From assembly GCA_964641815.1 (NCBI GenBank), contig CAZXKN010000116.1, forward strand, positions 1,889-65,888: a stretch of 64,000 nucleotides of DNA, given 5' to 3'. Each line of letters opens with the position of its first letter. Position 1 is the first letter of the stretch. The notes under the pieces are model-generated. The model did not search any database, was not told where the DNA came from, and was given only the letters and a program-made list of their open reading frames with translations. The position numbers were made by a program, and so were the translations under genes. Source of the stretch: an uncultured Gemmatimonadaceae bacterium. GTDB taxonomy: Bacteria; Gemmatimonadota; Gemmatimonadetes; Gemmatimonadales; GWC2-71-9. This document shows, in pieces, positions 3,287 through 50,932 of this stretch.

Positions 3287-3350
3287 GTCGTCGGTCATCG
3301 GTCGATGTCCCGGTGCAGTAACCGATGACCGATTACCGAAAACCGACGAC
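3287..3350 (-). repeat. unit-built imperfect hairpin H1 (heptamer TCRTCGG / CCGAnnA arms)
   Basis: The array tcatcgg tcgtcgg tcatcgg tcgatgt spans 3281-3308, with ccgatga ccgatta ccgaaaa ccgacga at 3322-3349 on the other side. GTCGTCGGT (3287-3295) pairs with ACCGACGAC (3342-3350). CATCGGT (3296-3302) pairs with ACCGATG (3321-3327). The element lies between the stop of 3357..4091 and the ATG (3284) of the next gene. Confidence 0.7.
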
Positions 3351-3356
3351 GCTGCG

Positions 3357-4091
3357 TCACTCGAACCCCGTCGCTCTCCCGCATCCGATGCAGTACGCCC
3401 ACCCGACGTCCACCTCGCTGCCGCACGCGGGGCACTTCAGCTCCCCCGAAGGCGGCTGGCCGCAATGCGGGCAGAAATTGACCTTGCGGTTCGCGGGCAC
3501 CGAGCCGCCACAATAGGGACACTGCCGCGGCGGCACCGCCTCTTCCGCGTCAGCCAGCTCGAACGCCGGGGCATTCGGCTCGAACTCCGGCGCATCGGCG
3601 ACATCGGCTCGCTCGAGGTCAGTGAACATCACCGGGGGGATCGGGTTTTCCGACGTCCAGCTGACCGGCTCGTCTTCCTCCTCTTCCGCGACCAGCTCCG
3701 GCTCCTCCCGGTCCCGCACCGGCTGCGGCGGGGCATAGCCCGCCATGTCGCCGCGCAACACCCGCTCGGCGGCGAAGCGATTGATCATCACGCGGGCGTC
3801 GGGGAAGTTGCGGAAGAACGAGGTGTCCGGGTTCGTCGCCGTGACTTCCTGCTGCATCCCCTCACGGACGTCGGGGGGATCGAGCTGCACCAGACCGCGC
3901 TCCCCCGCGAGCAGCCGCAGTACCGTCATCTCGTAGTCCTGGTGCGTGGCCACTTTCAGCCGCGACCGGTTGGAGCGATAGGGGACGAGCCGCTCGTACA
4001 GGTCGGCGGCGGGGAAGGGGAGAGCGAGCCGCGCGTCGCGCGACAGGGCTTCGACGAGGCACTCGAAGAGCCGGTCCAGCTCGTCGCTCAT
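3357..4091 (-). CDS. hypothetical protein with acidic linker and C-terminal double zinc ribbon
   Basis: 244 aa. C-terminus is CPYCGGSVPANRKVNFCPHCG...KCPACGSEVDVGWAYCIGCG (four CxxC pairs). The central stretch is Glu/Pro-rich. No enzyme motif recognised. Confidence 0.7.
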   Translation of the reverse strand: MSDELDRLFECLVEALSRDARLALPFPAADLYERLVPYRSNRSRLKVATHQDYEMTVLRLLAGERGLVQLDPPDVREGMQQEVTATNPDTSFFRNFPDARVMINRFAAERVLRGDMAGYAPPQPVRDREEPELVAEEEEDEPVSWTSENPIPPVMFTDLERADVADAPEFEPNAPAFELADAEEAVPPRQCPYCGGSVPANRKVNFCPHCGQPPSGELKCPACGSEVDVGWAYCIGCGRATGFE

Positions 4092-4114
4092 GGGACGACA
4101 ACCACACCCTTCAT
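4088..4114 (-). CDS. candidate 8-codon upstream ORF (MKGVVVVP*) translationally coupled to 3357..4091
   Basis: Sequence is ATG AAG GGT GTG GTT GTC GTC CCA TGA. A strong SD GGGGGAGAGG (reverse complement of 4119-4128) sits 4 nt upstream of the ATG. Its TGA overlaps the ATG of the next gene (ATGA). The peptide repeats the C-terminus of the upstream gene. Confidence 0.4.
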   Translation of the reverse strand: MKGVVVVP

Positions 4115-4137
4115 TGTACCTCTCCCCCTGTCCACCC

Positions 4138-5193
4138 TCACTTCACTACCACCACGCCCTTCATGAACGGGTGTGGCGTACAGTGGTAGGTGAAGGTACC
4201 TGCGTGATCGAAGCGGTGCACGAAGGACGTGTTCGGATTGATCAATTGCGAGCCCTGTTCTCCACTGTCGAACGTGACGGTGTGTCCGAGGGGATCGATG
4301 TTGTTCCAGCGGACTGCCTGCCCCACGGAAATGACCACGGTATCGGTCGGGAACTTCATGGCTCCGATGGTGACGGTCGCGCCGAGCGGTGCGTTGACAT
4401 CTCCTACCACCCTCGCCGATCCGCCACCGTGGAACCAGGGAGCGAAGCGACGCAGATGAATGGGGATGGTGAACTCGAACCCGTAGAGACGTTGCGAGCT
4501 GCCGATGGAATTCCCCTGAATCGTGCTCGCCGTCACGTTGGAGACCTCGAACGCGAAGGTGTGAGGCGAATTGGGGATCTGCACCTGGATTCCGGCACTC
4601 CACGCCGCCCGGACCGTGGGGCTGACGAACGAGCCCACGTCGGCTGAGACTGCGAAGTACTGCGACAACCGGGCGACGGCGCCGCCGGCAAACGCGGCGC
4701 GCCCCTTGGCAACCCCGAGTGCCTTCGACGCGTACCGGGCCGCGCCCTCGAGGGTGAGCGCGCCCACGGTATAGTCGACGCCGAGCTCTCCATCGGCGCT
4801 CTTGGCGAGCAGGCTGTAGGCCGGGGTTACCGCGACGTGCAGACCCGTGCTCCCTTCAGGGCCGCCGTATGCCCGCCAGCGCGCGAACAGCTCCGTCTCG
4901 TTGGTCGAGGTGGCGCCACGTCCCAGACCGACCAGGGACTTTGTCGCGAACCAGGTCCCGATCGCGACCCGGTGTGTGATGCCGGTCGAGAGCGTAAACG
5001 TCGGCGAATTCACGACGAAGTGGCCGCTCGAGGACGTCGCGGGAGAGACGTAGAAGCGATGTAGAAAATTGAACTGCACGACGTTGGGCTCCGCCACCCA
5101 GGTCCCCGCGAGGTTGGGGGACCGATACAGCAGCGATTGGGCCGAAAGTGGAGCGGCAAGACCCAATACGGTACTGACGACGATGAGGCGCAT
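4138..5193 (-). CDS. secreted protein: N-terminal beta-rich domain of unknown function fused to a C-terminal cupredoxin (plastocyanin/azurin-like) domain
   Basis: Trimmed to MRLIVVSTVLGLAAPLSAQ (signal peptide); the track starts at a TTG at 5235. The C-terminal ~100 aa carries type-1 copper ligand spacing: GHTVTF...YHCTPHPFMKG (His, Cys, His, Met). The N-terminal ~250 aa has an alternating beta-strand-like pattern. Confidence 0.8.
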   Translation of the reverse strand: MRLIVVSTVLGLAAPLSAQSLLYRSPNLAGTWVAEPNVVQFNFLHRFYVSPATSSSGHFVVNSPTFTLSTGITHRVAIGTWFATKSLVGLGRGATSTNETELFARWRAYGGPEGSTGLHVAVTPAYSLLAKSADGELGVDYTVGALTLEGAARYASKALGVAKGRAAFAGGAVARLSQYFAVSADVGSFVSPTVRAAWSAGIQVQIPNSPHTFAFEVSNVTASTIQGNSIGSSQRLYGFEFTIPIHLRRFAPWFHGGGSARVVGDVNAPLGATVTIGAMKFPTDTVVISVGQAVRWNNIDPLGHTVTFDSGEQGSQLINPNTSFVHRFDHAGTFTYHCTPHPFMKGVVVVK

Positions 5194-5219
5194 GCAATGC
5201 CCTCCGGTGGTGGTCAACG

Positions 5220-5254
5220 AATCCGCATTCCCCAATCCGCAATCGGCAATGCCG
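5220..5254. repeat. tandem heptamer array (AATCCGC-like, 5 units), no complementary arm found
   Basis: Units are aatccgc attcccc aatccgc aatcggc aatgccg. The array lies in the 61-nt gap between the dCMP deaminase stop (5255) and the cupredoxin-fusion start (5193). Confidence 0.6.
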
Positions 5255-7090: not shown

Positions 7091-7100
7091 CAGCGCGCGC

Positions 7101-7337: not shown

Positions 7338-7351
7338 TGTCCAGGTGAGAT

Positions 7352-8398: not shown

Positions 8399-8414
8399 GG
8401 ATCGGGAAATATGG

Positions 8415-8490
8415 AGGAGACGGTAGGAGACGGTAAGAGACGGTAAGGGATGCTACCCCTACCGTCTCTTACCGCCTCTTGCCGTCCCCT
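8415..8490 (-). repeat. unit-built hairpin H2 (decamer GAGACGGTAR arms)
   Basis: 8415-8449 (gagacggtag gagacggtaa gagacggtaa ggg) pairs with 8456-8490 (ccctaccgtctc ttaccgcctc ttgccgtccc c...). That is 35 positions with 5 mismatches and a 6-nt loop. It lies between the stop of 8495..9283 and the selD start. Confidence 0.8.
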
Positions 8491-8494
8491 ACCG

Positions 8495-9283
8495 TCAGGC
8501 TTCTTGCGCGACCAGTAGCGATCTGAGCCCGATCAGCGCACGCTCTTCGTTCGCCGGCTCGTCGAAGCTGCCATCCTCCCGCTGCATCGCCAACAGCGCG
8601 GGCACGGCGTTGGAGATCAGCTCCCGCGCCGGCCGGATCCCGGCGAGCAGCAGGGACTCGAGCATGTGGAACAGGTTCGCGTCGCCCCACGTTCCGTCGG
8701 GACGCTGGCTCTCGCCGAGACGCTCGACGCACGCCGGGAGCCGGTCATGGTACGGGACCGGCGCCACCGCCACGACGCCGAGGGCGCTGGCGGCGAGCTC
8801 GTTGTGCACGCTGGGCCAGAGACTTAAGACCCGCTCGAGGCGGCGCAACACTCGCGGCCGGGCATCCTGGCGCGCTCGGAGCAGCACGCGCAACCCGAGG
8901 CACTCCGCGGCGAACGTCGCCCCTTCCGCGCTCGTGAGCACGGTCCCGTTGGGCAGGGCGAGCGGCGACGGCGCCGACAGCGCGGGCGGCATCTCGAGGA
9001 ACGTCAGCACCCAGGCCACGAGCCGCGCCAGGCTGCCCTGCAACGCGTCGAGTCCCAGGTCCATCATCTCCCATGCGGCCCAGGCCGTGGTGACCAATGA
9101 CCCGCCGATCGAGCCGTCCATCTTCGTCTTGGCGCGCCGCTCGCTGACGAGCACCTGTGTGAGCTGCTCGTCCTCCGGGCGGGGGATCCCCAACAGTCGG
9201 CGGCCCAAGACACCTTGGCGCGAATCGAGGACCGAAAAGAAATTCTCCAGGCGTGTGATCGCCTGCTCCAGCGAGGTCGACAT
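8495..9283 (-). CDS. prenyltransferase/terpenoid-cyclase-repeat-like (alpha/alpha toroid) protein, function unknown
   Basis: 262 aa. Repeated motifs of the prenyltransferase/squalene-oxidase repeat type: DGSIGGSLVTTAWAAW, QRPDGTWGD, QREDGSF. Confidence 0.6.
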   Translation of the reverse strand: MSTSLEQAITRLENFFSVLDSRQGVLGRRLLGIPRPEDEQLTQVLVSERRAKTKMDGSIGGSLVTTAWAAWEMMDLGLDALQGSLARLVAWVLTFLEMPPALSAPSPLALPNGTVLTSAEGATFAAECLGLRVLLRARQDARPRVLRRLERVLSLWPSVHNELAASALGVVAVAPVPYHDRLPACVERLGESQRPDGTWGDANLFHMLESLLLAGIRPARELISNAVPALLAMQREDGSFDEPANEERALIGLRSLLVAQEA

Positions 9284-11496: not shown

Positions 11497-12839
11497 TCGG
11501 CCCTCAAGGAATCCGGTTTGATCGCCCGCCCGCGCAGCATCACCCAGGCGATGTCGCGGGTGGCGGAAATGTCGTCCACGGGACTGCGGTTCAGTACGAC
11601 CAGATCGGCCACCTTCCCCTGCACCAGCACGCCGATCGAATCGGCGCCGAGCACCTGGGCGGCGTGCCGGGTCGCGGCGGTCAGCGCCTCGATCGGGGTG
11701 AAGCCGGCCGCGACGAGCAGCGCGAGCTCTTCGTGCAGCGAGGCGCCCGGAACGAGGAGCGGGTTCGCGGCACCGGTGCCCGTCGCGACGAGTCCCCCCG
11801 CGGCCTTGAAGTCCCGCACGAACTGATCCTGCCGGTCGCGGCCGCGGCGGAACGCGGCGAACTGCGGCGCGCGCCAGCCGCTGCGCTGCAGCCACCCCGC
11901 GGCGTCGCGCACCGTTGCGGCGTCGGCGGGGACGTCCGCCATGCCGAAACGCGTCGCCAGGGCGGGGTCGTCGAAGCGCGCGTAGGTGTCGTGCGCGACC
12001 AGTGCCGGCACGATGGCGACGTGCGTGGCGGCGAGGGCGCGGGCCGTCCGCTCCACCGTCGCCGAGTCGAGCCCTCCCCAGCTCGCCTCTTCCAGCGTGA
12101 GGCCGGGGAAGAAGAGGTCGTGGGCGCGGACGAAGGGGGCAGGGTCCATCGCCGACGCGACGACGCCGGAGAGATCCTCCAGCGACGCGACGCCGGCGCG
12201 CGCGGCGGACACGGCGTCGAGCTTGCCGACCCGCGCCGCGACGCGCAGCCGCAGCGTCGCGGCTTCGTCGATGATGGCCCGCAACAGCTCCGGCGTGATC
12301 TTCGTGTAGACCATCACGAAATCCGCTCCGGCGACGGCGCGCTGATCCACCGCCTGTCGGGCTTCCTCGTCTCCCGACACCGCGGCGGCGCCGGGGAGCG
12401 TGGGGGCGAGCCCGTCGATCGCCGCCCCCGCCGTGTACACGCGCGGCCCGATGATGGATCCGAGATCGACGTCTTTCTTGAGCGTAAACCCTGAATCCGC
12501 CGGAGAATGCACGTCGCGCACCGACGTGACGCCCCACGCGACGTAGCGCGGCAACGCCCACCGCTCCACCATCGCGTTGGCGTCGATCAGACCGGGGATG
12601 ATCGTCTTGCCCAGCAGATTGATGCGCTCGGCGCCGCGCGGCACTTTGATTTCGTTCACGCGGGCGACCGCTTTGATCTCCCCATCCTTAATGAGGATCA
12701 GCGCGTCCGTCTTCGGTGCACCGCCCGAGCCGTCGATCAGCGTCGCGCCTTCCAGCGCGATCATCCCTTTCCCGGGGGACGTGCACGCCGCGGCCAGCGC
12801 CAGGGCGCCGAGCTGCGCGGCGGTCCACCAGCGACTCAC
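11484..12839 (-). CDS. amidohydrolase-fold protein with degenerate metal-binding motifs, secreted/lipoprotein
   Basis: Trimmed from 11484..13313 to GTG 12839 (VSRWWTAAQLGALALAAACTSPG; GTGA overlap with the upstream stop). The fold signature LIDGSG...ILIKDGEIKAV...IIPGLIDA is present. The HxH site reads ANAM and the usual GTDA reads GTGAAN. Confidence 0.75.
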   Translation of the reverse strand: MSRWWTAAQLGALALAAACTSPGKGMIALEGATLIDGSGGAPKTDALILIKDGEIKAVARVNEIKVPRGAERINLLGKTIIPGLIDANAMVERWALPRYVAWGVTSVRDVHSPADSGFTLKKDVDLGSIIGPRVYTAGAAIDGLAPTLPGAAAVSGDEEARQAVDQRAVAGADFVMVYTKITPELLRAIIDEAATLRLRVAARVGKLDAVSAARAGVASLEDLSGVVASAMDPAPFVRAHDLFFPGLTLEEASWGGLDSATVERTARALAATHVAIVPALVAHDTYARFDDPALATRFGMADVPADAATVRDAAGWLQRSGWRAPQFAAFRRGRDRQDQFVRDFKAAGGLVATGTGAANPLLVPGASLHEELALLVAAGFTPIEALTAATRHAAQVLGADSIGVLVQGKVADLVVLNRSPVDDISATRDIAWVMLRGRAIKPDSLRAEWKK

Positions 12840-13328: not shown

Positions 13329-14075
13329 ATGGCCGATGCAACCCCGTTCGCGGGAGCCATCGTCTACGGACCGGTCCTTTCCCGTCGCCTGGGACGGAGT
13401 CTGGGGATCGATCTCCTGCCGCCGCGCTCGAAGCTGTGCGAGCTCGACTGTCCCTATTGCGATTGCGGATTCACCACCCCACGGGTCCCGCGGGACCGCT
13501 GGCCGTCTCCCGACGAAGTCGGCCAGGCACTGCGGCGGGCGCTCGAACGCTCAGCGACGGCCCCCCACTGGATTACGCTGTCGGGGCGCGGCGAGCCGAC
13601 GTTGCACCCGCGGTTCGCCGTAGCCGTCGATCGTGTGCTCGCGGCGCGGGACGCGCTCGCCCCAGCGGTGCGCGTCGCCATCCTCTCCAACGGCATCGCC
13701 GCCCGGGTGCCGTCCATCCGCGACGCCCTGCGGCGGCTCGATGCGCGCATCATGAAGCTCGATCCCGGTCCGGCGGCGCGGGTGAACGGCGCGGTCATCG
13801 ACGCCGAGCGGATCGCGCGGTCGTATCAGGGGCTCGCGCCCGTGACGGTGCAGGCCATGGTGGTTCGGGGACCGGAATGGGACGGCTCGAGCGACGCCAG
13901 CTTCGCCGCCTGGCTGCCGCTCGCCGTCCTGGCGCAACCGGAGGCGGTACAACTGACGACCCTGAGCCGGCCGCCGGCGGATTCCAGAATCACAAATGTG
14001 CCGCGGGAGCGCCTCCAGCGAATGGCCGCGGCCATCGCGGAAGCGCTCCCGCGAGCGATTGTCCGTATCGTTTAG
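13329..14075 (+). CDS. radical SAM protein (small, single-domain)
   Basis: Trimmed to MADATPFAGAIVYGPVLSRRLGRSLGIDLLP. The CxxxCxxC cluster is CELDCPYC, followed by a GEPTLHP SAM-binding-like motif. Confidence 0.75.
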   Translation: MADATPFAGAIVYGPVLSRRLGRSLGIDLLPPRSKLCELDCPYCDCGFTTPRVPRDRWPSPDEVGQALRRALERSATAPHWITLSGRGEPTLHPRFAVAVDRVLAARDALAPAVRVAILSNGIAARVPSIRDALRRLDARIMKLDPGPAARVNGAVIDAERIARSYQGLAPVTVQAMVVRGPEWDGSSDASFAAWLPLAVLAQPEAVQLTTLSRPPADSRITNVPRERLQRMAAAIAEALPRAIVRIV

Positions 14076-17865: not shown

Positions 17866-18351
17866 GCCTGCGGGTTGACGAAATCGGCACGAACAACCGG
17901 CCCAAGGGGGCCAACCAACTGTTCGCTTCGCTTGCAGGACGATCGTCCGTGCCGAGCCCGGTCATCGGCGAAGAATCTGAGCCGGCACTGTCAACCAACT
18001 CTCAACTCATCGCTGTTTGTGGTTACCCGGGAGCGTGAGCAGAAGGTCCGCTGCGAACTACTTGGCTGGTAATCACTTGTGCGCCAGCTGCCGGCAGCGC
18101 TCTGCGATTGGTCTTTCAACCACAATTATTCTCATCACAGCCACGCCAGCTCCGAGAAGGGACCGAACGCGGACGATGCACGATCAGATTGACGAGCAGC
18201 GAGGCGCGGTAATACGCCCTCCGAGAGGCTGCGGAACGCGTTGCATTCTTGGTCCTAAGTAATTACTTTTCATCCACTTACGCCGCTTGCCGCGCCCCAT
18301 TTAACCATACACCCAGCTGACGGCGAGTAGCTGAAAGCTGATGGCTCTTCA
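17866..18351. other. 486-bp noncoding tract, less GC-rich and palindrome-rich (possible ncRNA and/or gyrA leader/promoter)
   Basis: Only short, unconvincing ORFs with poor third-position GC. Contains perfect 12-bp palindromes GGACGATCGTCC (17937-17948) and GCTGCCGGCAGC (18087-18098). An 8-bp helix TTGTGGTT (18017-18024) / AACCACAA (18118-18125) encloses ~95 nt with further stems. CAACCAACT is repeated at 17912 and 17992. Confidence 0.6.
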
Positions 18352-25511: not shown

Positions 25512-27129
25512 AGGCCTGTCAGTCCTTGTTGCGGTTTGCAGTCTCGTCACGCCATCCGCGGGGCAATCCCCGCGAGTTCAATCCTACGGCTTCTCCCTGT
25601 CATTGCCGGACAACGACGACTCCATATTGCGCGTGACCGCGTGGATCAACTTCGAACCGGGATCGTTCCAGCAAGGGGATACGGCCAAACTCAATCTCGT
25701 TGGTCTGACCGTGGACCGCGTTTTCGAGAGGGGATTGAACGGGTGGGAGCTGGGAAGCCGGATCGAGTTTGGTTATGACGGGAGCCTCCTTCGGGTCCGG
25801 TTACCCGATCCGGCGCGAGCGCGCGGCATCGTTGTCGAGTATCACGGCACCCCACGAGATGGACTCATCATCGGCCGCGACCTGCGGGGAAGGCGCGTCG
25901 TATTTGGGGACAACTGGCCCGAGCGAGCAAGGTTCTGGATTCCTACGGTCGATCATCCAAGTGACAAGGGACAAGTAGCCTTTTCAATCGGCGTTCCAGT
26001 TGGGTCGGGATTACGCGTCGTGGCGAACGGACGGTGGGTCGCCGGGAGCCTGAACGAAACCGACCATGGCCGCCAAGTGGTCACTACCTGGCAAGAAGAC
26101 TCGCCAATTCCCACCTACACCATGGTGCTGGGCGCCGCACATTTCGCCGTCTCCAATCATCGTCCAATTGTTCACGGCCGCGACACGATCCCCATCACCG
26201 TCTGGGCCTACCCCGAGGACTCTGCGTTCGCCGACTCGGGTCCGTTCCGCCGCGTCACGGAGATCGTCGAGACGATGGAGCGGCTCGTCGGCCCGTTTCC
26301 CTACGAGAAGCTGGCGCACGTCGAGTCGTCGACCCGCTACGGCGGCATGGAGAACTCGACGGCGATTTTCTACGCCGAGAAACCGTACGTCGAGCGCACG
26401 ATGCGCGAGGGCGTGGTGCGCCACGAGACGTCGCACCAGTGGTTCGGAGACGCCGTGACCGAGCGCGACTGGGCGCACCTGTGGCTGTCGGAGGGGTTCG
26501 CCAGCTACTTCGACCTCGTGATCGGCGCCGCGCTCGACGGCGATTCGGTGCTCACGGCTGGCCTGACGCGCGATGCCCGCGCCTACTTCGCGTCCAAGGT
26601 GGTCGATCGGCCGCTCGTCGACACCGCCGAACACGATCCGAACAATCTCCTCAACGAAAACAGCTACCAGAAGGGCGCGTGGGTGCTGCATATGTTGCGG
26701 GAGTCGGTCGGCGACTCGGCGTTCTTTCGCGGGATCCGCGAGTACTACCGGGTGTACCGTGACTCGACCGCCCGCTCGAGCGATTTTCAGCGTGTGATGG
26801 AAGGCGCCGCCGGCCGCAGTCTCGACGAGTTTTTTCGGCAATGGCTCTGGCAACCCGGATATCCGCGCCTCGATGTCCGCTGGCGCTTCGAGGCGGCCGA
26901 CCACCGCGTCCGGTTGGAGATCACGCAGTCGCAGCCCGAGGCGTGGGGCATATTTCGTATTCCCGGGCTCGAGGTCGAAGCGGTATCGGCGGCGGGAGTG
27001 GCGACGCGGCGCGTCTATGCGCTCGACGACCGCACGACCATCGCCTACCTCGAGCTCGCTGCTGCGCCGAGCGTGATTCACGTCGATCCCGATCATCGGC
27101 TGCTCGTGCAGACTACCGTGACGCCTTAG
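25501..27129 (+). CDS. M1-family zinc aminopeptidase (aminopeptidase N-like), secreted
   Basis: 542 aa with a signal peptide, exopeptidase motif GGMENS, and zinc site HETSHQWFGD...WLSEGFASY (HExxH-x18-E). Confidence 0.85.
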   Translation: MGGRGLSVLVAVCSLVTPSAGQSPRVQSYGFSLSLPDNDDSILRVTAWINFEPGSFQQGDTAKLNLVGLTVDRVFERGLNGWELGSRIEFGYDGSLLRVRLPDPARARGIVVEYHGTPRDGLIIGRDLRGRRVVFGDNWPERARFWIPTVDHPSDKGQVAFSIGVPVGSGLRVVANGRWVAGSLNETDHGRQVVTTWQEDSPIPTYTMVLGAAHFAVSNHRPIVHGRDTIPITVWAYPEDSAFADSGPFRRVTEIVETMERLVGPFPYEKLAHVESSTRYGGMENSTAIFYAEKPYVERTMREGVVRHETSHQWFGDAVTERDWAHLWLSEGFASYFDLVIGAALDGDSVLTAGLTRDARAYFASKVVDRPLVDTAEHDPNNLLNENSYQKGAWVLHMLRESVGDSAFFRGIREYYRVYRDSTARSSDFQRVMEGAAGRSLDEFFRQWLWQPGYPRLDVRWRFEAADHRVRLEITQSQPEAWGIFRIPGLEVEAVSAAGVATRRVYALDDRTTIAYLELAAAPSVIHVDPDHRLLVQTTVTP

Positions 27130-27138
27130 GAGGCCACA

Positions 27139-28266
27139 ATGCGAGAACGACTTGGGTACGCAGCGCTCTTGGTGATCGCCTGCAGCGGCGGTAAGTCGGC
27201 CGCCAGCCAGGAGCCGCCTGCCGGGATGGTGCCGCAACAAATCGCCGGGCACACGTTGTTTCTGCGCACCGGATTCAAGATCAACGTCTTCGCGGACCTC
27301 GGTGGGGTGCGCAACCTGGTGCTGGGACCTGGGGGCGCGGTCTACGCGGCGTTGCAGGGTCCCGGCCGAGTGGTCCGGCTCGCCCACGCCTCGGGAGACA
27401 GCACGGCCGGCGCCACCGAGGACGTCGCCACCGGGCTGAACGGTCCATTCGGGATCGCCTTCCGTGGCGACACGATGTACGTCGGCGAGCAGACTCGCGT
27501 GACGCGATTTGCTCCCGGGAGCACCGCCGGTCAGGCGATCGTTTCCGGGCTGCCCTCGGGCGGCCACAGCACCCGGACGGTCGTGTTCGGTCCGGACGGC
27601 CTGATGTACGTCGCGGTCGGATCTTCGTGCAACATTTGCGACGAGTCCGACCCGCGCCGCGCGGCGGTCACCCGTTTCAACCCAGACGGGTCGGGGGAGC
27701 ACCGCTTCGCGACAGGACTGCGCAACTCGGTGGGACTCGCCTTCAACCCGTCGACCAGTGAGCTGTGGGCGACGAACAACGACCGCGACAACATCGGCGG
27801 CTCGAATACCGCGATGACGGACGACCTGCCCCCCGAGCATCTCAACATCCTCAAGGACGGCAAGTTCTACGGCTGGCCGAAGTGCTATCTGCCAGGCAAG
27901 CCGAACCCTGAATACGCGAGCGCCGACTGCTCCACGGTCGAGCCTCCCGCGATCACCTTCCAGGCGCACTCGGCCCCGCTCGGCATCACGTTCTATACCG
28001 GTTCGGCGTTCCCCGGCTACAAGGGTGATGCGTTCCTCACGTATCACGGCTCGTGGAACCGCAGGGTCCCCACCGGCGCGAAGGTCGTGCACGTGAAGGT
28101 GGAGAGTGGCAAGCCGGTCTCGATCGAAGACTTCGTCACCGGCTGGCAGCTGCCCGACGGCTCGCGCTGGGGCCGTCCCGTAGCGGTGCTCGCGCTGCCC
28201 GATGGGTCGCTCCTGATTTCGGATGATCAGGGCGGGAAGATCTGGCGGGTGACGTATGGGAAGTAA
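27139..28266 (+). CDS. PQQ-dependent sugar (glucose/sorbosone) dehydrogenase-family beta-propeller
   Basis: 375 aa with a lipoprotein-like N-terminus (LLVIACSGG). Contains HSTRTVVFGPDGLMYVAVGSSCN and the DDLPPEHLN... pattern typical of soluble aldose/sorbosone dehydrogenases. Confidence 0.8.
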   Translation: MRERLGYAALLVIACSGGKSAASQEPPAGMVPQQIAGHTLFLRTGFKINVFADLGGVRNLVLGPGGAVYAALQGPGRVVRLAHASGDSTAGATEDVATGLNGPFGIAFRGDTMYVGEQTRVTRFAPGSTAGQAIVSGLPSGGHSTRTVVFGPDGLMYVAVGSSCNICDESDPRRAAVTRFNPDGSGEHRFATGLRNSVGLAFNPSTSELWATNNDRDNIGGSNTAMTDDLPPEHLNILKDGKFYGWPKCYLPGKPNPEYASADCSTVEPPAITFQAHSAPLGITFYTGSAFPGYKGDAFLTYHGSWNRRVPTGAKVVHVKVESGKPVSIEDFVTGWQLPDGSRWGRPVAVLALPDGSLLISDDQGGKIWRVTYGK

Positions 28267-28395
28267 GGGCGGACGAGGGCGGACGAAGGCGGGAGAGGTC
28301 TACGTCGTGATGGGGATGGGAATCGCTCTGGTCGGGGCTACGTGGGGGTTTTCCCTCTACCGCCCTCTACCGACTTCGTCCGCCTTCTCCCGCCC
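28267..28395 (+). repeat. unit-built hairpin H3 (decamer GGGCGGACGA arms) enclosing the start of the next gene
   Basis: 28267-28299 pairs with 28363-28395 (33 positions, 5 mismatches, 1 G-U). The left arm starts 1 nt after the upstream TAA. GGGAGAGG (28291-28298) lies in the left arm. GTG 28307, ATG 28310 and ATG 28316 lie in the 63-nt loop. Confidence 0.8.
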
Positions 28396-29074
28396 GGACA
28401 TCCACTCGGAGTACGTCAAGTATCTCTCGGGTAAGGACACCCTTACCGCCTATCTGGCCTATCCCGAGCGGCGCGATCCGGCCCCGGCGGTGATCGTGAT
28501 TCACGACATCTACGGCATGGGCGACCGGCTGCGGCCGGCGGTCGAGCTCCTGGCGCAGCGGGGATTCGTGGCGATCGGGCCGGACCTCCTGTCGCGTGCG
28601 GGCGGCACGCCGGCCACGTCCGACTCCGCACGACGGCTGATCTCGGGTCTCGATCCCGACGCCGTCACGCGCGATCTCGATGCGACCTACGCCTATCTCC
28701 GGACGATCAAGGCGGTGCGGGGCGATCACATCGGGGTCATCGGGTTCTGCTGGGGCGGGAGCCAGAGCTTCCGGTACGCCACGAACAATCCGAATCTCAA
28801 GGCGTTCGTCGTCTGCTACGGCTCGGCGCCCGATACTATGGCGCTGGCGCGGATCAAGACAAAGGGACTCGGTGTGTACGCGGAGAACGACGCGCGCATC
28901 GGCGCCGGGCTGCCGGGCCTGGACACGGCGGTCAAACGCCTGCGGCTCGACTACCAGTACCGCGTGTACCCGGGCGTCGGCCACGCTTTCCTCCAGACGC
29001 GTGAAAAGCCCGATGTGGCGGACACGGCGTGGGCCGCGATCGAGGGGTTTTTCCGATCCCAGCTCGGCCGCTGA
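28310..29074 (+). CDS. dienelactone hydrolase family protein
   Basis: AYLAYPERRDPAPAVIVIHDIYGMGD, nucleophile-elbow context IGVIGFCWGG, C-terminal YPGVGHAF. The start is uncertain (GTG 28307, ATG 28310 or ATG 28316). The track start at 28256 overlaps the upstream gene and the hairpin arm. Confidence 0.8.
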   Translation: MGMGIALVGATWGFSLYRPLPTSSAFSRPDIHSEYVKYLSGKDTLTAYLAYPERRDPAPAVIVIHDIYGMGDRLRPAVELLAQRGFVAIGPDLLSRAGGTPATSDSARRLISGLDPDAVTRDLDATYAYLRTIKAVRGDHIGVIGFCWGGSQSFRYATNNPNLKAFVVCYGSAPDTMALARIKTKGLGVYAENDARIGAGLPGLDTAVKRLRLDYQYRVYPGVGHAFLQTREKPDVADTAWAAIEGFFRSQLGR

Positions 29075-29526
29075 CGGTCGGGGCGGCACTCGCCGCCGCC
29101 CTGCTGGGCTGCTCCGACTCCGCGCCGTTCCGGCCTCCCGGCGCGTCGCTCGTTGTGACGGTGCAGGCGTATCACTGCTCGGGCGGCTGTGGGTCGCCGA
29201 GTGGCCCGGTCGATACGGTGCAACGAGGCGATACCGCTCTCGTGCGACTCGCGGTCGCGGACACGTCAGGGAGCAGCACGATCGCGCTCCTCCGTCCTGA
29301 CTGCGCCGTCAACGTCACGATCCTCGGCGGGACGACGCAGCACACGCTGCCCGCTGCCGCAACCTGTCCTGATTCCGGAATCTCGGTCGACATGGGTTCG
29401 GTTCCCTATCTGCGGGACATCGAGTGGATCGTGGATGGGTCGTTCGCGGCGGGGGACTACACGCTGCGCGGCGATATCGTCGTCGACCCTCCCGTGACGG
29501 GCCGGCGGCCGGTGCACGTCCGCTAG
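29029..29526 (+). CDS. hypothetical lipoprotein
   Basis: 165 aa with lipobox AALLGCS. Four further Cys residues. No recognised domain. The start is uncertain because ATG 29029 overlaps the previous gene by 46 nt. Confidence 0.5.
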   Translation: MGRDRGVFPIPARPLTVGAALAAALLGCSDSAPFRPPGASLVVTVQAYHCSGGCGSPSGPVDTVQRGDTALVRLAVADTSGSSTIALLRPDCAVNVTILGGTTQHTLPAAATCPDSGISVDMGSVPYLRDIEWIVDGSFAAGDYTLRGDIVVDPPVTGRRPVHVR

Positions 29527-29539
29527 ACGGTCGCGCGCG

Positions 29540-33904: not shown

Positions 33905-34477
33905 ATGGCGCTCGACTTCCGCAGGCTCTGGCAGCAGGCGACACCCTACCACGAATTCGTCCGGGATGCGGCCGCAAACCGTGAGCTGTGGGCCTCGATG
34001 GAGCGGATCGCGCAGATTCCCGAGTGGGCGATCGCGGCGGTCCGGACCTCGGGAGAGAAGTTCAACTTCCTGGTGATCGCCGAAGACTGGTGCGGGGATG
34101 GGACGAGCACGATCCCCTATCTTGCCAAGCTCGCGACGATCACCCGCTGTATCGAAGTCCGGGTGCTGCGACGCGATGAGCACCCGGAAGCGATGGATCG
34201 CTATCTCACCGACGGGGCGCGCGCAATTCCGATCGTGATCGTCTTGAACCGGCATCTCGAGGAGCTGGGCCATTGGGGTCCACGCCCCGCAGACCTGCAG
34301 GAGTGGGTGCGCAGCGAGCGAGCGAAAACCGGAGTGAAGCCGCCCTACCCGCAGATCCGGCGCTGGTATGCGCGGGACAAGGGGATCGCGACGCTGCGGG
34401 AGGTGTTGGAGCTGTTCGCGAAGAAGCCGTCAGCTGTCAGCCCTCAGCCGTTAGCTGTTTCGGCAATGACTGGCTGA
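33905..34477 (+). CDS. thioredoxin-fold family protein (single-Cys WCGD motif)
   Basis: Trimmed to MALDFRRLWQQATPYHEF. Contains FLVIAEDWCGDGTSTIPYL and AIPIVIVL. The last ~16 codons (KKPSAVSPQPLAVSAMTG) are encoded by hairpin H4. Confidence 0.7.
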   Translation: MALDFRRLWQQATPYHEFVRDAAANRELWASMERIAQIPEWAIAAVRTSGEKFNFLVIAEDWCGDGTSTIPYLAKLATITRCIEVRVLRRDEHPEAMDRYLTDGARAIPIVIVLNRHLEELGHWGPRPADLQEWVRSERAKTGVKPPYPQIRRWYARDKGIATLREVLELFAKKPSAVSPQPLAVSAMTG

Positions 34478-34492
34478 TAGCTGACAGCTGAC
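34429..34492. repeat. unit-built hairpin H4 (heptamer GTCAGCT / AGCTGAC arms) between convergent genes
   Basis: 34429-34449 pairs with 34472-34492 (21 bp, 2 mismatches) with a 22-nt loop. The plus-strand stop (34475-34477) lies inside the right arm. The minus-strand stop (34498) is 6 nt beyond. Confidence 0.8.
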
Positions 34493-34497
34493 AGCAG

Positions 34498-42752: not shown

Positions 42753-43193
42753 GTGACCGCCGTCCGCTACGAGCGCGCCAATCTTGGCACGACCTTTCTC
42801 CCCATCGGGCAGATGCTGCAGCTCGACCGCGTGAACACGGTCGACGGCGAATGCATCACCGCCGAGATGAACCTCAGCCCCGAGCATTGGGTGTTTCCGA
42901 TGCACTTTCCCGGCGATCCCATTTTCCCGGGGTGTCTTCTGATCGAAGCCGCGGGCCAGCTCGTGGCGTTGTGGGGATGGGACGCGGGTCTGCGCGGACG
43001 GCCGCGCATGGCCCGCACGAGCGCCGAGTTCGAGAGCCCCGTCTTCGCCACCGACCGCACCGTGACGCTGCAAGGTGAGGTCCGGCGCCGCCGCAACATG
43101 TGCTTCGGAACGGTGACCGTCACGGCAGGCGATCGGACGGTCGCGAAAATCGAGGCGGTGATCGTGGTAGTGGCGGGAGAGAACGGGCACTGA
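42753..43193 (+). CDS. FabA/FabZ-family 3-hydroxyacyl-ACP dehydratase (hot-dog fold)
   Basis: 146 aa with active-site region HWVFPMHFPGDPIFPGCLLIEAAGQL. Confidence 0.75.
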   Translation: MTAVRYERANLGTTFLPIGQMLQLDRVNTVDGECITAEMNLSPEHWVFPMHFPGDPIFPGCLLIEAAGQLVALWGWDAGLRGRPRMARTSAEFESPVFATDRTVTLQGEVRRRRNMCFGTVTVTAGDRTVAKIEAVIVVVAGENGH

Positions 43194-43214
43194 GCGAAAG
43201 ATTGTGAAAGTGGC

Positions 43215-43287
43215 GGAGGTTGGTGGAAGATGGTGGAGGCAACATCGAGCTACGTCCACCATCCTTCACCATCCTCCGCCAACCTCC
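43215..43287. repeat. unit-built hairpin H5 (decamer GGTGGARGWT arms) between convergent genes
   Basis: 43215-43239 pairs with 43263-43287 (25 positions: 1 mismatch, 2 G-U) with a 23-nt loop. It fills the gap between stops at 43193 (+) and 43299 (-). Confidence 0.8.
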
Positions 43288-43298: not shown

Positions 43299-44666
43299 CT
43301 AGTTCGTCTTATGCAGCTCCACCCGCCGATTCCGCGAGCGGCCTACCGCTGTCGCGTTGGTATCGATGGGATCGTCCGCGCCGTAGCCGCGCGACGTGAT
43401 CTGCTCCGGTGACACCCCCCGCTCGATGAGGTAGCTGCGCACCGCGTCCGCCCGGGCTTTCGAGAGGCGGAGATTGGCGGCGAGGCCGCCGCGGCTGTCG
43501 GTGTACCCGGCCACTTCCACGCGCGTCCCGGCGTGCGCCACCAGCGAGATCGCCACACGGTCGAGCGCGCCCCGCGCCCCGGCAGTGAGCGCCGTGCTGT
43601 TGAGCTCGAACGTCACATCCTCGAGGACCAGCGTGCGCGCGACTCCGGTAAAGAGCGGCGGGCACCCGATCGAATCGACCTTCTCCCCGACGGGCGTGCT
43701 GGGGCACTTGTCCATCGTGTCGACCACCCCGTCGCCATCGGAGTCCTTCGGCAGCGGGCAGCCGGTGGCGTCGATCTTCTCGCCGGCCGGCGTGTTGGGG
43801 CACTTGTCGGCGGAGTCGGGGACTCCGTCCTTGTCGCTGTCGAGCTCGCACCCCGTCGCGTCCACCTTCATTCCGGGCGGCGTGTTGGGGCACTTGTCGA
43901 GCGCATCAACCACGCCGTCCCCGTCCGCGTCCTTGGGGAGCGAGCACCCGCGCGCATCCACCTTGTCGCCCGCGGGGGTGTTGGGGCAACGGTCCAGGTT
44001 GTCGACCACCCCGTCCCCGTCTGCATCCTTGGGCAGCGAACAGCCGTGCGCATCGACCGATTCCCCGGGCGGCGTGTTGGGACAGTTGTCGAACTTGTCA
44101 CCCACACCGTCGTGATCGGAGTCCTTGGGGTGACTGCTGCCGATCAGGGCGGAGAGCCCGGCCTGCAGTGAAAAATTCCAGTTGTTCGGGACCGCGACGC
44201 TCTGGTTTTGCGGCGAGGGAATGAAATCCTCGACCGCCTCGACCCGCATCGCCCAGGCGCTGCCCAGGCCGAGGCGTAAGCCGAACAGTCCGCTCACGCC
44301 GTCGTCGGAGTAGTTGGCGGTCTTGCCATAGACGTTGTGGACGTACCCCGCCCCCATCATGATGCCGAGACTCCCGACGACCGGACGCCCGTACACCAGC
44401 TGGGCGCGCAACGGAATCAGCGTGCCATCGGGGATGAACGGACCAGTGGTCGGCAGATAGCCGCCCGTGCCCTCGACGGCGAGCCCGGGGGCGAGAAAGA
44501 CACCGAGGTACCCGCCGCCTCCGAAGGCGTTGTCGAGTGCCAGGGATTTATCGAACCGCGTGTAGCGTCCGAATCCACCGAACTCGATCGTCCCGGCGTC
44601 TTGTGCCGGGAGAGCGGCGGCGAATCCGGTGAGCAAGGCGACAACCGCCACGGTGCGAACGTGCAT
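43299..44666 (-). CDS. OmpA-family outer membrane protein with thrombospondin type-3 calcium-binding repeats
   Basis: Trimmed to MHVRTVAVVALLTGFAAALPAQ; a strong SD GGAAAGGAGG lies upstream. It has an N-terminal beta-barrel-like region and 5 repeats of D.D.DGV.D..D.CPNTP.G..VD..GC. The C-terminal OmpA domain carries GYTDSRG...NLRLSKARA. Confidence 0.85.
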   Translation of the reverse strand: MHVRTVAVVALLTGFAAALPAQDAGTIEFGGFGRYTRFDKSLALDNAFGGGGYLGVFLAPGLAVEGTGGYLPTTGPFIPDGTLIPLRAQLVYGRPVVGSLGIMMGAGYVHNVYGKTANYSDDGVSGLFGLRLGLGSAWAMRVEAVEDFIPSPQNQSVAVPNNWNFSLQAGLSALIGSSHPKDSDHDGVGDKFDNCPNTPPGESVDAHGCSLPKDADGDGVVDNLDRCPNTPAGDKVDARGCSLPKDADGDGVVDALDKCPNTPPGMKVDATGCELDSDKDGVPDSADKCPNTPAGEKIDATGCPLPKDSDGDGVVDTMDKCPSTPVGEKVDSIGCPPLFTGVARTLVLEDVTFELNSTALTAGARGALDRVAISLVAHAGTRVEVAGYTDSRGGLAANLRLSKARADAVRSYLIERGVSPEQITSRGYGADDPIDTNATAVGRSRNRRVELHKTN

Positions 44667-46167: not shown

Positions 46168-46181
46168 GCGGGCTCCTGACG

Positions 46182-48371: not shown

Positions 48372-48436
48372 TAGGGTGGTTCGGCTAACCTACGGCGCGT
48401 GACACAGCCGGGCAAGTCAATGTAGCTTCCCGCGAT

Positions 48437-50845
48437 ATGCGCGATGTCCCGAATTACGATCCAGCCGCAATCGAAGCGGCGTGGCAGGCACGCTGGGCGG
48501 AGCGCCGCACCAACGAGCCCGACCTCGACCGTCCCGCGCGGCCGTTCTACAACCTGATGATGTTCCCCTACCCGTCGGCCGAGGGCCTGCACGTGGGGAA
48601 CATGTTTGCGTTCACGGGGGCCGACATTCACGGCCGCTTCCAGCGCCTCCGAGGCAATACCGTGTTCGAGCCGATCGGCTACGACGCGTTCGGAATCCAT
48701 TCCGAGAACTACGCGCTGTCGCGAGGGATCAACCCCGCGAAACTCATTCCGGAGAACATCGCCACCTTCCGCCGGCAGCTGCACCGCATGGGCGGGATGT
48801 TCGATTGGCGCCACGAGCTGTCCACCACCGACCCCGGCTACTACCGCTGGACGCAGTGGCTCTTCCTGCAGCTCTTCAAGGCGGGGCTCGCGTATCGCAA
48901 GCGGGCGGCGGTGAACTGGTGCCCCAAGGACAAGACCGTGCTCGCCAACGAGCAGGTCATCAACGGCCACTGCGAGCGCTGCGGCACGGCGGTGGAGCAG
49001 CGCTCGCTCGATCAGTGGTTCTTCCGCATCACCGACTACGCGGGCCGCCTGCTCGACAACCTCGACCGGCTCGACTGGTCGGAGTCGACGGTCGCCCTGC
49101 AGCGCAACTGGATCGGCCGCAGTGAAGGCGCCGAGCTCGTGTTCCGGACGCCGGCGGGGCAGGGGATCACGGTGTTCACGACGCGCCCCGACACGGTATT
49201 CGGCGCGACCTACCTGGTCCTCGCCCCCGAGCACCCCTTCGTCGACGAGCTCACCGCTGCCGAGCAGCGCCCGGCGGTACGCGCCTACCAGCGCGAGGTC
49301 CAGAGCCGCGACGTCGTCGCGCGCCGCGTCGGCGAGAAGAAGAAGACCGGCGTGTTCCTCGGTAGCTATGCGAAGAATCCCGCCACCGACGAAGCGATCC
49401 CGATCTGGATCGCCGACTACGTGCTGATGGAGTACGGCACCGGCGCCATCATGGCGGTGCCGGGACACGACACCCGCGACCACGAATTCGCGACGCAATT
49501 CAAATTGCCGATTCGCGAGGTGGTGCGGGTGGAGGGCGAGCAGCTCCCCGTCATCTCCGAGGAGGGCGTGCTCGTCAATTCGAAACAATTCGACGGCCTC
49601 GGGTGTCGCGAGGGCGCGCGCCGTATCGTCGCCTGGCTCGCCGAGCGCGGCGTAGGCTCGAGCAAGGTGCAGTACCGTCTGCACGACTGGTGCATCTCGC
49701 GGCAGCGCTATTGGGGTCCGCCGATCCCGATCATCTATTGTGACGCCTGCGGTCCAGTGGCGGTACCCGAACAGGATCTTCCGGTCGAGCTGCCGCTCAT
49801 CGAGGACTTCCGCCCCGACGATTCCGGCATCTCACCGCTGGCGCGGCACACCGAGTGGTACAACGTGCCGTGCCCGTCGTGCGGCAAGGCGGGGCGCCGT
49901 GAGACCGACGTCTCCGATACGTTCCTCGATTCGTCGTGGTATTACCTGCGCTACCCGTCGACCGAGTTCTCCGACCGGCCGTTCGACCCGGCGCGTACCA
50001 AAACGTGGCTCCCGGTCACGACCTACATCGGCGGCAACGAACACGCCGTGTTGCACCTCTTGTATTCGCGCTTCATCACGATGGTGCTCAAGGATTTCGG
50101 GCACGTCGAGTTCGAGGAGCCGTTCCCCAAGCTGCGGGCGCACGGGTTGATCGTGAAGGACGGCTCCAAGATGTCGAAGTCGCGCGGCAACGTCGTCGTC
50201 CCCGACGCCTACATCCAGCAGTGGGGCGCCGACACGTTCCGGATGTATCTGATGTTCCTGGGACCGTTCCAGGAGGGCGGCGACTTCCGCGACACCGGGA
50301 TCACGGGGATCCGGCGCTTTCTCGAGAAGGTGTGGGTGCTCGCCCACGAAGCGACGGCCGGGCCCGACCGGGCGGCGCCGCCCGAAGTCGTCACCAAGCT
50401 GCATCAGACGATTCGCAAGGTGACGGCGGACACCGGCGCACTCGATTACAACACCGCGATCGCGGCGATGATGGAGTACATCAATCTCGTGCGCGAGCGC
50501 GACGCGGGGAGCCGCGAAGCCCTGCGGCCGCTCGTGTTGCTGTTGTCGCCCTACGCTCCGCATCTCGCCGAGGAGCTCTGGATCCTGCTCGGCGGTTCGG
50601 GGCGCAGCGTGTTCGACGAGCGCTGGCCGGAGTACGTCGAGCGGCTCGCCGTCGCAGGCGAAGTCGAAATCGCCATCCAGGTCAACGGCAAGCTGCGCGG
50701 ACGCCTGCAGCTGCCGCGCGGCGCGTCGCAGGACGACGTGGTGACGCGTGCCCTGAAGGAGGAAGGCGTCAAGAAGTTCGTGAATGGGAGCAAGGTGAAA
50801 AAGGTGATTTACGTGCAGGATCGGCTGGTGAACCTGGTAGTGTGA
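48437..50845 (+). CDS. leuS: leucyl-tRNA synthetase
   Basis: 802 aa with a class-I HIGH-type motif (PSAEGLHVGN), KMSKSRGN, and a CP1 editing domain with a zinc-knuckle-like CERCG. Confidence 0.97.
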   Translation: MRDVPNYDPAAIEAAWQARWAERRTNEPDLDRPARPFYNLMMFPYPSAEGLHVGNMFAFTGADIHGRFQRLRGNTVFEPIGYDAFGIHSENYALSRGINPAKLIPENIATFRRQLHRMGGMFDWRHELSTTDPGYYRWTQWLFLQLFKAGLAYRKRAAVNWCPKDKTVLANEQVINGHCERCGTAVEQRSLDQWFFRITDYAGRLLDNLDRLDWSESTVALQRNWIGRSEGAELVFRTPAGQGITVFTTRPDTVFGATYLVLAPEHPFVDELTAAEQRPAVRAYQREVQSRDVVARRVGEKKKTGVFLGSYAKNPATDEAIPIWIADYVLMEYGTGAIMAVPGHDTRDHEFATQFKLPIREVVRVEGEQLPVISEEGVLVNSKQFDGLGCREGARRIVAWLAERGVGSSKVQYRLHDWCISRQRYWGPPIPIIYCDACGPVAVPEQDLPVELPLIEDFRPDDSGISPLARHTEWYNVPCPSCGKAGRRETDVSDTFLDSSWYYLRYPSTEFSDRPFDPARTKTWLPVTTYIGGNEHAVLHLLYSRFITMVLKDFGHVEFEEPFPKLRAHGLIVKDGSKMSKSRGNVVVPDAYIQQWGADTFRMYLMFLGPFQEGGDFRDTGITGIRRFLEKVWVLAHEATAGPDRAAPPEVVTKLHQTIRKVTADTGALDYNTAIAAMMEYINLVRERDAGSREALRPLVLLLSPYAPHLAEELWILLGGSGRSVFDERWPEYVERLAVAGEVEIAIQVNGKLRGRLQLPRGASQDDVVTRALKEEGVKKFVNGSKVKKVIYVQDRLVNLVV

Positions 50846-50932
50846 ATGCAGAATGCAGAATGCAGAATGTCGAATGCAGAATTCTCCGGTCAGGAATTCT
50901 GCATTCTGCATTCATCATTCTGCATTCGCATC
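50844..50932. repeat. unit-built hairpin H6 (heptamer GAATGCA / TGCATTC arms) spanning stop codon to stop codon
   Basis: The left arm has 5 GAATGCA-type units plus GAATTC (50844-50884), the loop is tccggtcag, and the right arm is GAATTC plus 4 TGCATTC-type units. 50851-50884 pairs with 50894-50927 (34 positions: 3 mismatches, 1 G-U). The element abuts the leuS TGA (50843-45) and the minus-strand stop (50931-33). Confidence 0.85.

Follow-up and report, generated by a model that had tools for sequence, protein, structure and literature searches.

Six hairpin-forming elements, H1 to H6, lie within a 64-kb stretch of a Gemmatimonadales genome, the whole of which was analysed and is referred to here as the window. 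They are built alike: one arm of each is a 7- or 10-nt unit repeated in tandem, and the other arm is a tandem array of the complement. The genes they touch include leuB, purM, a dienelactone hydrolase gene, and the paired ends of thioredoxin-like and Omp85, fabZ-like and OmpA-like, and leuS and VIT1 genes. Elements of the same kind recur in related genomes; in Gemmatimonadales they form a class of non-coding repeat that extends across the order. Their 5' arms are nearly always G-rich, and their arms stay complementary while the unit changes between lineages, a form of concerted evolution.

The six elements

The window was placed in Gemmatimonadales by its leucyl-tRNA synthetase (LeuRS) relatives, whose identity runs from 97% down to 62%, and its genes were mapped with a codon model trained on the window itself, together with Pfam. 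The elements are listed below. Arm lengths and complementarities come from an inverted-repeat search, and z compares the minimum free energy (MFE) of the RNA fold with those of 200 dinucleotide shuffles of the element.

H1, 3280-3350, minus strand: unit GTCATCG/TCGGTCA (3280-3303) and complement (3321-3350); arms 19 nt, 89% complementary; MFE -37.9 kcal/mol, z -4.5
H2, 8415-8496, minus strand: 10-nt unit GAGACGGTAA/TTACCGTCTC; arms 37 nt, 84% complementary; MFE -65.2 kcal/mol, z -10.1
H3, 28266-28395, plus strand: 10-nt unit GGGCGGACGA, more degenerate complementary arm (28353-28395), loop of 60-65 nt; arms 40 nt, 80% complementary; MFE -76.6 kcal/mol, z -4.1
H4, 34425-34495, no strand assigned: 7-nt unit GTCAGCT/AGCTGAC; arms 24 nt, 88% complementary; MFE -45.9 kcal/mol, z -7.5
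H5, 43211-43287, no strand assigned: 10-nt unit GGTGGARGWT; arms 27 nt, 89% complementary; MFE -49.3 kcal/mol, z -8.1
H6, 50843-50931, no strand assigned: 7-nt unit GAATGCA/TGCATTC; arms 35 nt, 86% complementary; MFE -51.6 kcal/mol, z -8.3

Reading all six regions confirmed the positions and units reported in an earlier, first-pass annotation of this DNA. Tandem Repeats Finder (TRF) recovers an array on both arms of every element, with period 7 in H1, H4 and H6 and period 10 in H2, H3 and H5; neither length is a multiple of three. Our detector, which pairs a TRF array with a reverse-complementary array of the same period no more than 200 nt away, returns exactly these six in the window; over 100 shuffles that preserve its dinucleotides, the mean is 0.04 and the maximum 1. 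Inverted tandem arrays are present here far above chance. The stems drawn in the annotation hold up when folded, with z-scores of -4 to -10 and, for each element, no shuffle out of 200 that folds as well as the native RNA. Folded as single-stranded DNA, the elements again give significant energies, from -19.5 to -38.1 kcal/mol.

That none of the six is followed by a U-tract had been claimed too, and we find no T-run after any of them on either strand. The sole match of a terminator scanner near any element is a 5-bp stem beside H1 whose T-run falls inside the H1 arm. Between positions 1 and 20000, canonical hairpins with a U-tract are not enriched at all (3 found, 7.2 expected), and across the window no Rfam covariance model matches at its gathering threshold. 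[quoted passage not shown]

Gene context

Four of the elements lie between genes. H1 occupies the 72 nt separating the stop of a zinc-ribbon gene (3357) from the start of leuB (3284). One side of its stem begins 6 nt past the upstream stop; the other, promoter-distal arm holds the leuB start codon, and in the predicted fold the AUG is paired. H2 lies between the stop of a 262-aa gene (8495-8497, within the base of the stem) and the start of purM (8398). H5 fills the space that the convergent fabZ-like (stop 43193) and OmpA-like (stop 43299) genes leave between them, and H6 exactly spans that between the stops of leuS (50843-50845) and VIT1 (50931-50933), so placed that in the predicted fold the leuS TGA pairs with the VIT1 TCA at the base of the stem.

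The other two intrude on genes. A thioredoxin-like open reading frame (ORF; stop 34475-34477) takes its last ~17 residues from H4, running through the 5' arm and the loop into the beginning of the 3' arm, and the element ends 2 nt short of the stop of the convergent Omp85 gene (34498). H3 appears to lie inside the 5' coding region of the dienelactone hydrolase gene. When aligned, homologues of this hydrolase share an N-terminus composed of M-x-x-K/R, a basic stretch, a hydrophobic segment and a Pro/Ser-rich linker, and this conservation makes the ATG at 28256, which overlaps the upstream stop, the most likely start. The coding sequence is then divided over the hairpin: in what resembles a signal-anchor region, the basic n-region falls to the 5' arm, the hydrophobic segment to the loop and the Pro/Ser linker to the 3' arm. 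The first-pass annotation, which took all six elements to be intergenic, needs correction for H3 and H4.

Two homologues of the hydrolase (P0015 and P0022, of loci L015 and L022) carry repeated n-region peptides, VGRTGG occurring twice, for example. Judged from sequence, expansion of an embedded DNA array alters the N-terminus of the hydrolase in some orthologues, or so these peptides suggest. At the other end of the gene, public assemblies call a 165-aa ORF (29029-29526) that overlaps the end of the hydrolase gene and was missed by the codon model, and the apparent 465-nt gap at 29075-29539 is therefore probably coding.

Distribution

Eighty related loci, designated L with a number and totalling 1.25 Mb (1.31 Mb with the window), yielded 46 further inverted tandem arrays, or 52 with those of the window. 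This count is conservative: several leuS 3' ends that the detector scored as lacking an element visibly bear arrays. Thirty-three of the 52 have period 7, and the remainder periods 8 (six), 9 (seven) and 10 (six). Far from being equally common inside genes, 49 of the 52 fall outside predicted genes, in intergenic DNA that makes up only 11% of the sequence (p 2e-43). Heptamer arrays of any kind reach 775 per Mb between genes, as against 97 per Mb in coding sequence, and arrays of periods 9 and 12 show no such bias. About 45% of the intergenic short-unit arrays are arms of hairpins. The elements recur in independent assemblies from ENA, JGI, Logan and NCBI, and on that ground an assembly artefact was rejected.

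Elements occupy 9.0% of convergent junctions, 7.3% of divergent junctions and 2.5% of co-directional ones (chi-square p 4e-4, calculated over sites some of which are orthologous and hence non-independent). Among the 45 that could be classified, 14 lie between divergently transcribed genes. Their arms mostly begin 0-10 nt from a stop codon and stand at least 35 nt off most start codons. The elements are confined to weakly constrained sequence: directly after stops, in the spacers between back-to-back promoters, and at variable protein termini.

The class extends further. In L119, one of the contigs matched in the metagenome scan described below, whose closest named homologues are from Verrucomicrobiota, the gap between pilB and pilC is exactly filled by a tandem-heptamer hairpin (ATTTATG/TCGTAAA, 3342-3421), and there are two more hairpins within 8.6 kb, three in total. 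The class is therefore not limited to one phylum.

Polarity of the arms

In 48 of 51 elements, the 5' arm contains more G than C (p 2e-11). Because the elements are palindromic, this 'G-first' rule reads identically on either strand. It applies in convergent, co-directional and divergent contexts alike, and the 14 elements in divergent gaps all conform to it, for which reason transcription-coupled GC skew was rejected as the cause. Perfect inverted repeats of 10 bp or more were then sorted by the same property: intergenic ones made of tandem arrays are G-first by 27 to 3, non-tandem intergenic ones divide 27:27, and those in coding sequence 55:70. The even division of the non-tandem hairpins means that the polarity is specific to hairpins with tandem arms, and not to hairpins or putative terminators generally; as a general property of terminators it was accordingly discarded. 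Unpaired, one-armed arrays follow a weaker form of the rule (Fisher p 0.0013). A directional step in the generation of the arrays could, possibly, underlie it. Whatever its origin, the rule constrains every model of how such repeats arise.

Variation between strains and lineages

Contigs that encode exactly identical flanking proteins served as a short-term comparison. In such contigs, the purM-side arm of H2 carries CTACCGTCTC twice (the window), three times (four contigs) or five times (L089), and the 3' arm of H4 carries GCTGATA once (the window), twice (L093) or three times (L219). Whole units are gained and lost on one arm, at the level of DNA. At one position of the H5 stem, two contigs have C-G, three have T-A and two have a C.A mismatch: a compensatory change seen along with its intermediate. 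H1, H3 and H6 show no differences among the contigs found with identical flanking proteins; H1 is identical in L088, for instance.

Over longer times the unit itself changes. Orthologues of H3, in loci whose proteins are 85-86% identical, keep the hairpin and have GGCGGTG (L217) or GGCGGAT (L218) where the window has GGCGGAC, and in 18 of the 50 predicted pairs both partners differ. At the leuS/VIT1 junction the window and L002 have GAATGCA, and L001, whose LeuRS is 97% identical, has GAATGTA on both arms; GGAGCAC is found at this junction in L003 and L010, and GATTGCG in L013. These four unit types are scattered over the branches of the LeuRS tree, and in most other relatives, sisters in that tree included, the two stops are 1-10 nt apart and there is no hairpin. 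Elements are thus gained and lost at orthologous gene junctions. Some units appear to be drawn from local codons: that of H1 contains the leuB start, and those of H6 and of the L013 hairpin overlap the leuS stop.

H5 has been inherited with the OmpA-like gene, through which its orthologues were found; a search of relatives for fabZ synteny found none. The window and L003 have units of ~10 nt, three to four per arm, and L004 has a simple 14-bp stem, GAGGATGGTGGAGG, of which those units are tandem copies. The stem has therefore grown, or shrunk, by tandem duplication. The fabZ-like gene (42753-43193 in the window) is absent from L003 (4757-4860), where a serA-like stop faces the OmpA stop across an H5-type hairpin, and a gene has therefore been gained or lost directly beside the hairpin.

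In the divergent gap between VIT1 and an extracytoplasmic function (ECF) sigma gene (52041-52174 in the window; L001-L023), a spacer lies between conserved promoter-like motifs (TGCGACC, ~17 nt, GCATCTAA on one strand; TTGGAA...TATCTT on the other). Nearly all of the ~18 genomes examined have a hairpin or an array in this spacer, of differing sequence. In the window (GCGTCCGG...CCGGACGC) and in L001 the hairpin is non-repetitive, in two genomes there is an array on one arm only, and in L004 and L005 the loops are homologous.

These comparisons bear on what the first-pass annotation had supposed about the origin of the arms. Slippage, which it proposed, is well supported by the exact-unit copy differences at H2 and H4, and joint maintenance of the two arms is supported by the pair change at H5, the switch from GAATGCA to GAATGTA at the H6 site and the doubly altered pairs of H3. 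Among orthologues, unit number or identity changes while the hairpin is kept at some junctions; at others, the hairpin is absent.

Recurrence of units

The same or a nearly identical unit is found at two loci within 20 kb in L010, L016, L033, L042 and L077. The two L042 copies match over whole arms, variant units and termini included, and differ in their interiors. We took 98 heptamer elements, counted units as shared when they lay within a distance of 1 in any rotation and on either strand, and used letter-shuffled units as the null. Sharing came to 9.6% within genomes (null 4.4%) and 5.6% between genomes (null 3.8%), and the 98 elements fell into ~75 unit classes. The excess is real but modest, and an early impression of a small, shared vocabulary of units was dropped once it had shrunk to this level against the composition-matched null. 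A metagenome scan for (GAATGCA)3 matched more than 120 contigs; hairpins were present in ~35 of the 80 examined, always with GAATGCA first and never beside leuS. Because the metagenome collection is so large, this abundance shows that the class is common, not that the unit is special. In 20 GAATGCA hairpins we found no target-site duplications, conserved ends, shared loops or shared flanks. Ordinary multi-copy families, which would run counter to the first-pass account, are therefore visible only faintly, as units that recur elsewhere modestly more often than composition predicts.

Relation to known repeats

Tandem heptamer repeats that form hairpins were first reported in cyanobacteria around 1990, and those of Xanthomonas in 2015. 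The units of the cyanobacterial short tandemly repeated repetitive (STRR) sequences include CCCCAGT, TTGGTCA and CAACAGT. The first-pass annotation recognized no described class with the architecture of H1 to H6, and here it was mistaken, for the STRR sequences (PMC2670836) and the GGGAATC pairs of Xanthomonas (PMC4692102) both have it. Between hupS and hupL of cyanobacteria, 7-bp STRR repeats form hairpins that have been proposed to stabilize the transcript or to couple translation (PMC2670836). Xanthomonas genomes have ~185 GGGAATC arrays, among them 70-75 convergent pairs able to form stem-loops, and ~90% of the arrays are intergenic, near the end of the upstream gene (Rehm et al. 2015, PMC4692102).

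The Xanthomonas arrays, too, are tandem 7-nt units, mostly intergenic and often in inverted pairs able to form stem-loops, and differ in length and sequence between close species. Their G-rich strand is the coding strand downstream of genes and the non-coding strand upstream, an orientation equivalent to G-first. But Xanthomonas has essentially one unit per genome, capable of forming a G-quadruplex and mostly in arrays of four, whereas the units here fall into the many classes described above, mostly not G-quadruplex-prone, have periods of 8 and 10 nt as well, and are not depleted from the gaps between divergent genes. STRR sequences resemble the present elements in being 7-bp tandem intergenic units able to fold between co-transcribed genes; they differ in having a few fixed units per genome, in AT-richer genomes, and neither polarity nor co-evolution of the arms has been described for them. 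No single unit or handful of units dominates here, in contrast to Xanthomonas and Nostoc: there are six units in 64 kb and only 9.6% sharing within genomes. The coexistence of many unit types in one genome is the main difference from the known heptamer hairpins.

Other classes are less similar. An excess of heptanucleotides among the long simple sequence repeats (SSRs) of prokaryotes was noted in 2007 (Mrazek et al.) and ascribed to polymerase slippage (as summarized in PMC4679880 and PMC4692102). That work matches ours in the excess of 7-nt units and in the exclusion from genes of lengths that are not multiples of three; it covers direct arrays, and the paired hairpin arrangement and its polarity fall outside its description. 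REPs have a GTAG or CGTC tag and a cognate REP-associated tyrosine transposase (RAYT; PMC3733652). Like the elements here, REPs, bacterial interspersed mosaic elements (BIMEs) and REP doublets forming hairpins (REPINs) are short intergenic palindromes often found just past stops, and REPs are transcribed and can stabilize upstream mRNA. REPs, however, are 20-40-nt family-conserved sequences in hundreds of copies, whereas our elements have no common sequence, repetitive arms and whole-unit variation. The 'I-shaped' hairpins without U-tracts proposed for high-GC Actinobacteria are likewise GC-rich, follow genes and occur in genomes poor in canonical terminators; unlike the elements here, their stems are short and non-repetitive, and a third of ours are away from 3' ends. 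The elements are, then, neither REPs nor REPINs (no family-conserved 20-40-nt palindrome), nor MITEs (no target duplications and no conserved interior), nor canonical intrinsic terminators (no U-tract). In the literature on STRR, Xanthomonas and SSR repeats we found no report of 8- or 10-nt periods, of a polarity control with ordinary hairpins, of concerted turnover of units at orthologous sites or of intrusion into coding termini, and searches for work on GAATGCA arrays or on repeats in Gemmatimonadetes gave nothing specific.

As a natural experiment, this lineage is richer than those studied before: each genome has many units, strains have alleles one unit apart, and at orthologous sites the unit may be another or missing altogether. 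Such natural variation, together with the polarity rule, provides a handle on the old puzzle of heptamer repeats. The elements also remodel the ends of genes, as in the C-terminal tail at H4, the signal-anchor coding sequence at H3 and the predicted sequestration of a start codon at H1, and they are therefore relevant to genome annotation and to the evolution of gene ends in these soil phyla.

Origin and possible function

We lean, with rather more conviction than doubt, toward the view that the elements are palindromic microsatellites, shaped by slippage and by exchange between their arms, and that they probably serve opportunistically as RNA structures at 3' ends and between cistrons. In each, a short unit (7 nt in most, 8 or 10 in some) is repeated in one array and, beyond a spacer, its complement in another; whichever strand is read, the G-rich array is the 5' one. 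Replication slippage within an arm would change the number of units. Template switching within a strand, or mismatch correction in the folded hairpin, would keep the arms complementary by acting between arms paired in any register, so that homogenization would proceed unit by unit; selection for pairing may assist. Template switching at quasipalindromes is an established mutational process in Escherichia coli (PMC7202029), and a role in creating and maintaining RNA hairpins has been proposed for switching during DNA replication (PMC8794818).

Transcripts of the elements would fold into stems of 20-35 bp. After convergent genes these might act as 3'-end barriers independent of a U-tract, aiding pausing or termination, blocking exonucleases or perhaps serving as RNase III sites; within operons they might couple translation between cistrons. 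At H1, the leuB AUG would be sequestered in the stem.

Several results sit uneasily with this view. Permuting the order of the units in the 3' arm leaves the fold unweakened (mean difference -0.35 kcal/mol over 33 elements, p 0.91). Variant units thus do not come in mirrored order on the two arms; neither copying nor selection position by position can be the main force, and exchange has to take place at the level of units or registers. The same permutation led us to drop both recent inverted duplication of whole arms and pairwise compensatory selection as the main force. Sense and antisense MFEs show no difference in co-directional elements (n = 13, p 0.21), so that no strand-specific signal (G-U versus A-C) of selection on the RNA is seen. 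Slippage and template switching do not predict a strong G-first polarity, 48 of 51 against the even 27:27 of ordinary hairpins, and a purely local origin does not explain why units recur at unrelated loci, as in L010, L016, L033, L042, L077 and the GAATGCA contigs.

Among the other explanations, the likeliest is that the elements are selected as bidirectional, U-tract-independent terminators or mRNA 3'-end stabilizers, their tandem structure being merely the way in which stems lengthen. The stems are highly stable, arms mostly start within 10 nt of a stop codon, and the elements peak at convergent junctions (9.0%, versus 2.5% for co-directional ones); over the 20 kb of the window scanned, canonical terminators are not enriched, and the OmpA 3' end keeps a hairpin in the window, L003 and L004. 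As an account of the class as a whole we consider it unlikely nonetheless, and the terminator or insulator role that the first-pass annotation put forward is not borne out as a general one, because the distribution is contrary to it: 14 of 45 elements lie between divergent genes, the site between the promoter-like motifs of VIT1 and the ECF sigma gene among them, H3 appears to be within a coding region, and most relatives have no hairpin at the leuS/VIT1 junction. The polarity, moreover, is missing from ordinary intergenic hairpins. Whether hairpins lacking a U-tract terminate at all is disputed even in mycobacteria, the best-studied high-GC case, where RNA polymerase requires the U-tract (PMC3993855). 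A role as terminators only is unlikely.

Could the elements instead be mobile? They might be small, non-autonomous elements resembling MITEs or REPINs, their ends heptamer arrays that bind a transposase or HUH-type enzyme, with each unit type a family of its own. Orthologous junctions are indeed polymorphic for what looks like an insertion of ~85 bp between adjacent stop codons; the two L042 copies have arms, variant units and termini in common around different interiors; the same or near-identical units occur at two loci within 20 kb in L010, L016, L033 and L077; and GAATGCA hairpins appear in many unrelated contexts. Against this, target-site duplications are lacking, nothing is conserved beyond the arrays, the loops are unrelated, unit sharing is only modestly above the null (9.6% vs 4.4% within and 5.6% vs 3.8% between genomes), and the six elements of the window share nothing. 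Some units, moreover, appear to have been made from the local start or stop codon, and one polarity across nearly all unit types would not be expected of independent transposon families. We regard mobility as distinctly improbable.

A dedicated, directional process that generates repeats, such as repeated extension of 3' ends at breaks, or copying after fold-back by a particular polymerase or an HUH-type enzyme, is something of a long shot as well. The idea stems from the G-first rule, the unmirrored arms, the one-armed arrays that behave alike, and the recurrence of units at unrelated loci in several phyla. Were it true, these would be a new kind of self-propagating DNA element, and not the product of ordinary slippage.

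It is very doubtful that the elements act at the level of DNA, as cruciform spacers that absorb negative supercoiling between divergent promoters, or as arrays for a structure-specific protein. Unrelated hairpins and arrays fill the same VIT1/ECF sigma spacer in nearly all of ~18 genomes, single-strand DNA folds are significant (-19.5 to -38.1 kcal/mol), and polarity is independent of transcriptional context; yet elements are commonest at convergent junctions, where positive supercoils build up, and offer no shared sequence for a protein to read.

Least credible of all is the proposal that they are scars of break repair, in which 3' ends extended by reiterative synthesis of a G-rich unit were joined head-to-head as in telomere fusion: it would account for a polarity that is G-first on either strand and confined to hairpins with tandem arms, for the unmirrored order of units, for the many one-armed arrays of like orientation and for insertion without target duplication, but loops can carry pre-existing functional sequence (the hydrophobic segment of H3; the homologous loops of L004 and L005), and the great diversity of units would demand many templates. 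We know of no enzyme for break repair with reiterated units, which counts against it too.

One-armed arrays and other repeats

One further array in the window was overlooked in the first-pass annotation and makes a seventh:

One-armed array, 5220-5250, no strand assigned: AATCCGC in 4.4 copies (TRF), with only a weak partner, GCGATTGGG, near 5132

Its unit is identical to that of the leuS hairpin in L013, and it is probably a decayed or incipient member of the class. Longer one-armed arrays occur in relatives. L012 has ~16 copies of GGCGTGG/GGCGTGC (13530-13640), and L068 has ~9 copies of GTCATCN, a unit matching that of H1, at 2600-2660 and 3030-3100; none of these has a complementary partner nearby. 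L035 carries, downstream of leuS (12420-12480), a dispersed REP-like palindrome, GTCATCCTGAGCG...AGCGAAGGATC, which is present twice and belongs to another class than the tandem-arm hairpins.

Elsewhere in the window, the OmpA-like gene contains a tandem repeat with a 96-nt period and 4.9 copies (43658-44126) that encodes thrombospondin type-3 repeats and is an ordinary coding repeat. Two gaps of ~500 nt, 17866-18351 upstream of gyrA and 25512-26019 before the gene at 26020, have neither a predicted gene nor a tandem-arm hairpin. Finally, tandem and palindromic ACATCTTACGTA/TTACGTAA motifs (57197-57245) occur in the 328 nt from which an M14 peptidase gene (54423-57050, minus strand) and its neighbour at 57379-57810 diverge; these motifs look like the operator sites of a regulator and not like a tandem-arm hairpin.

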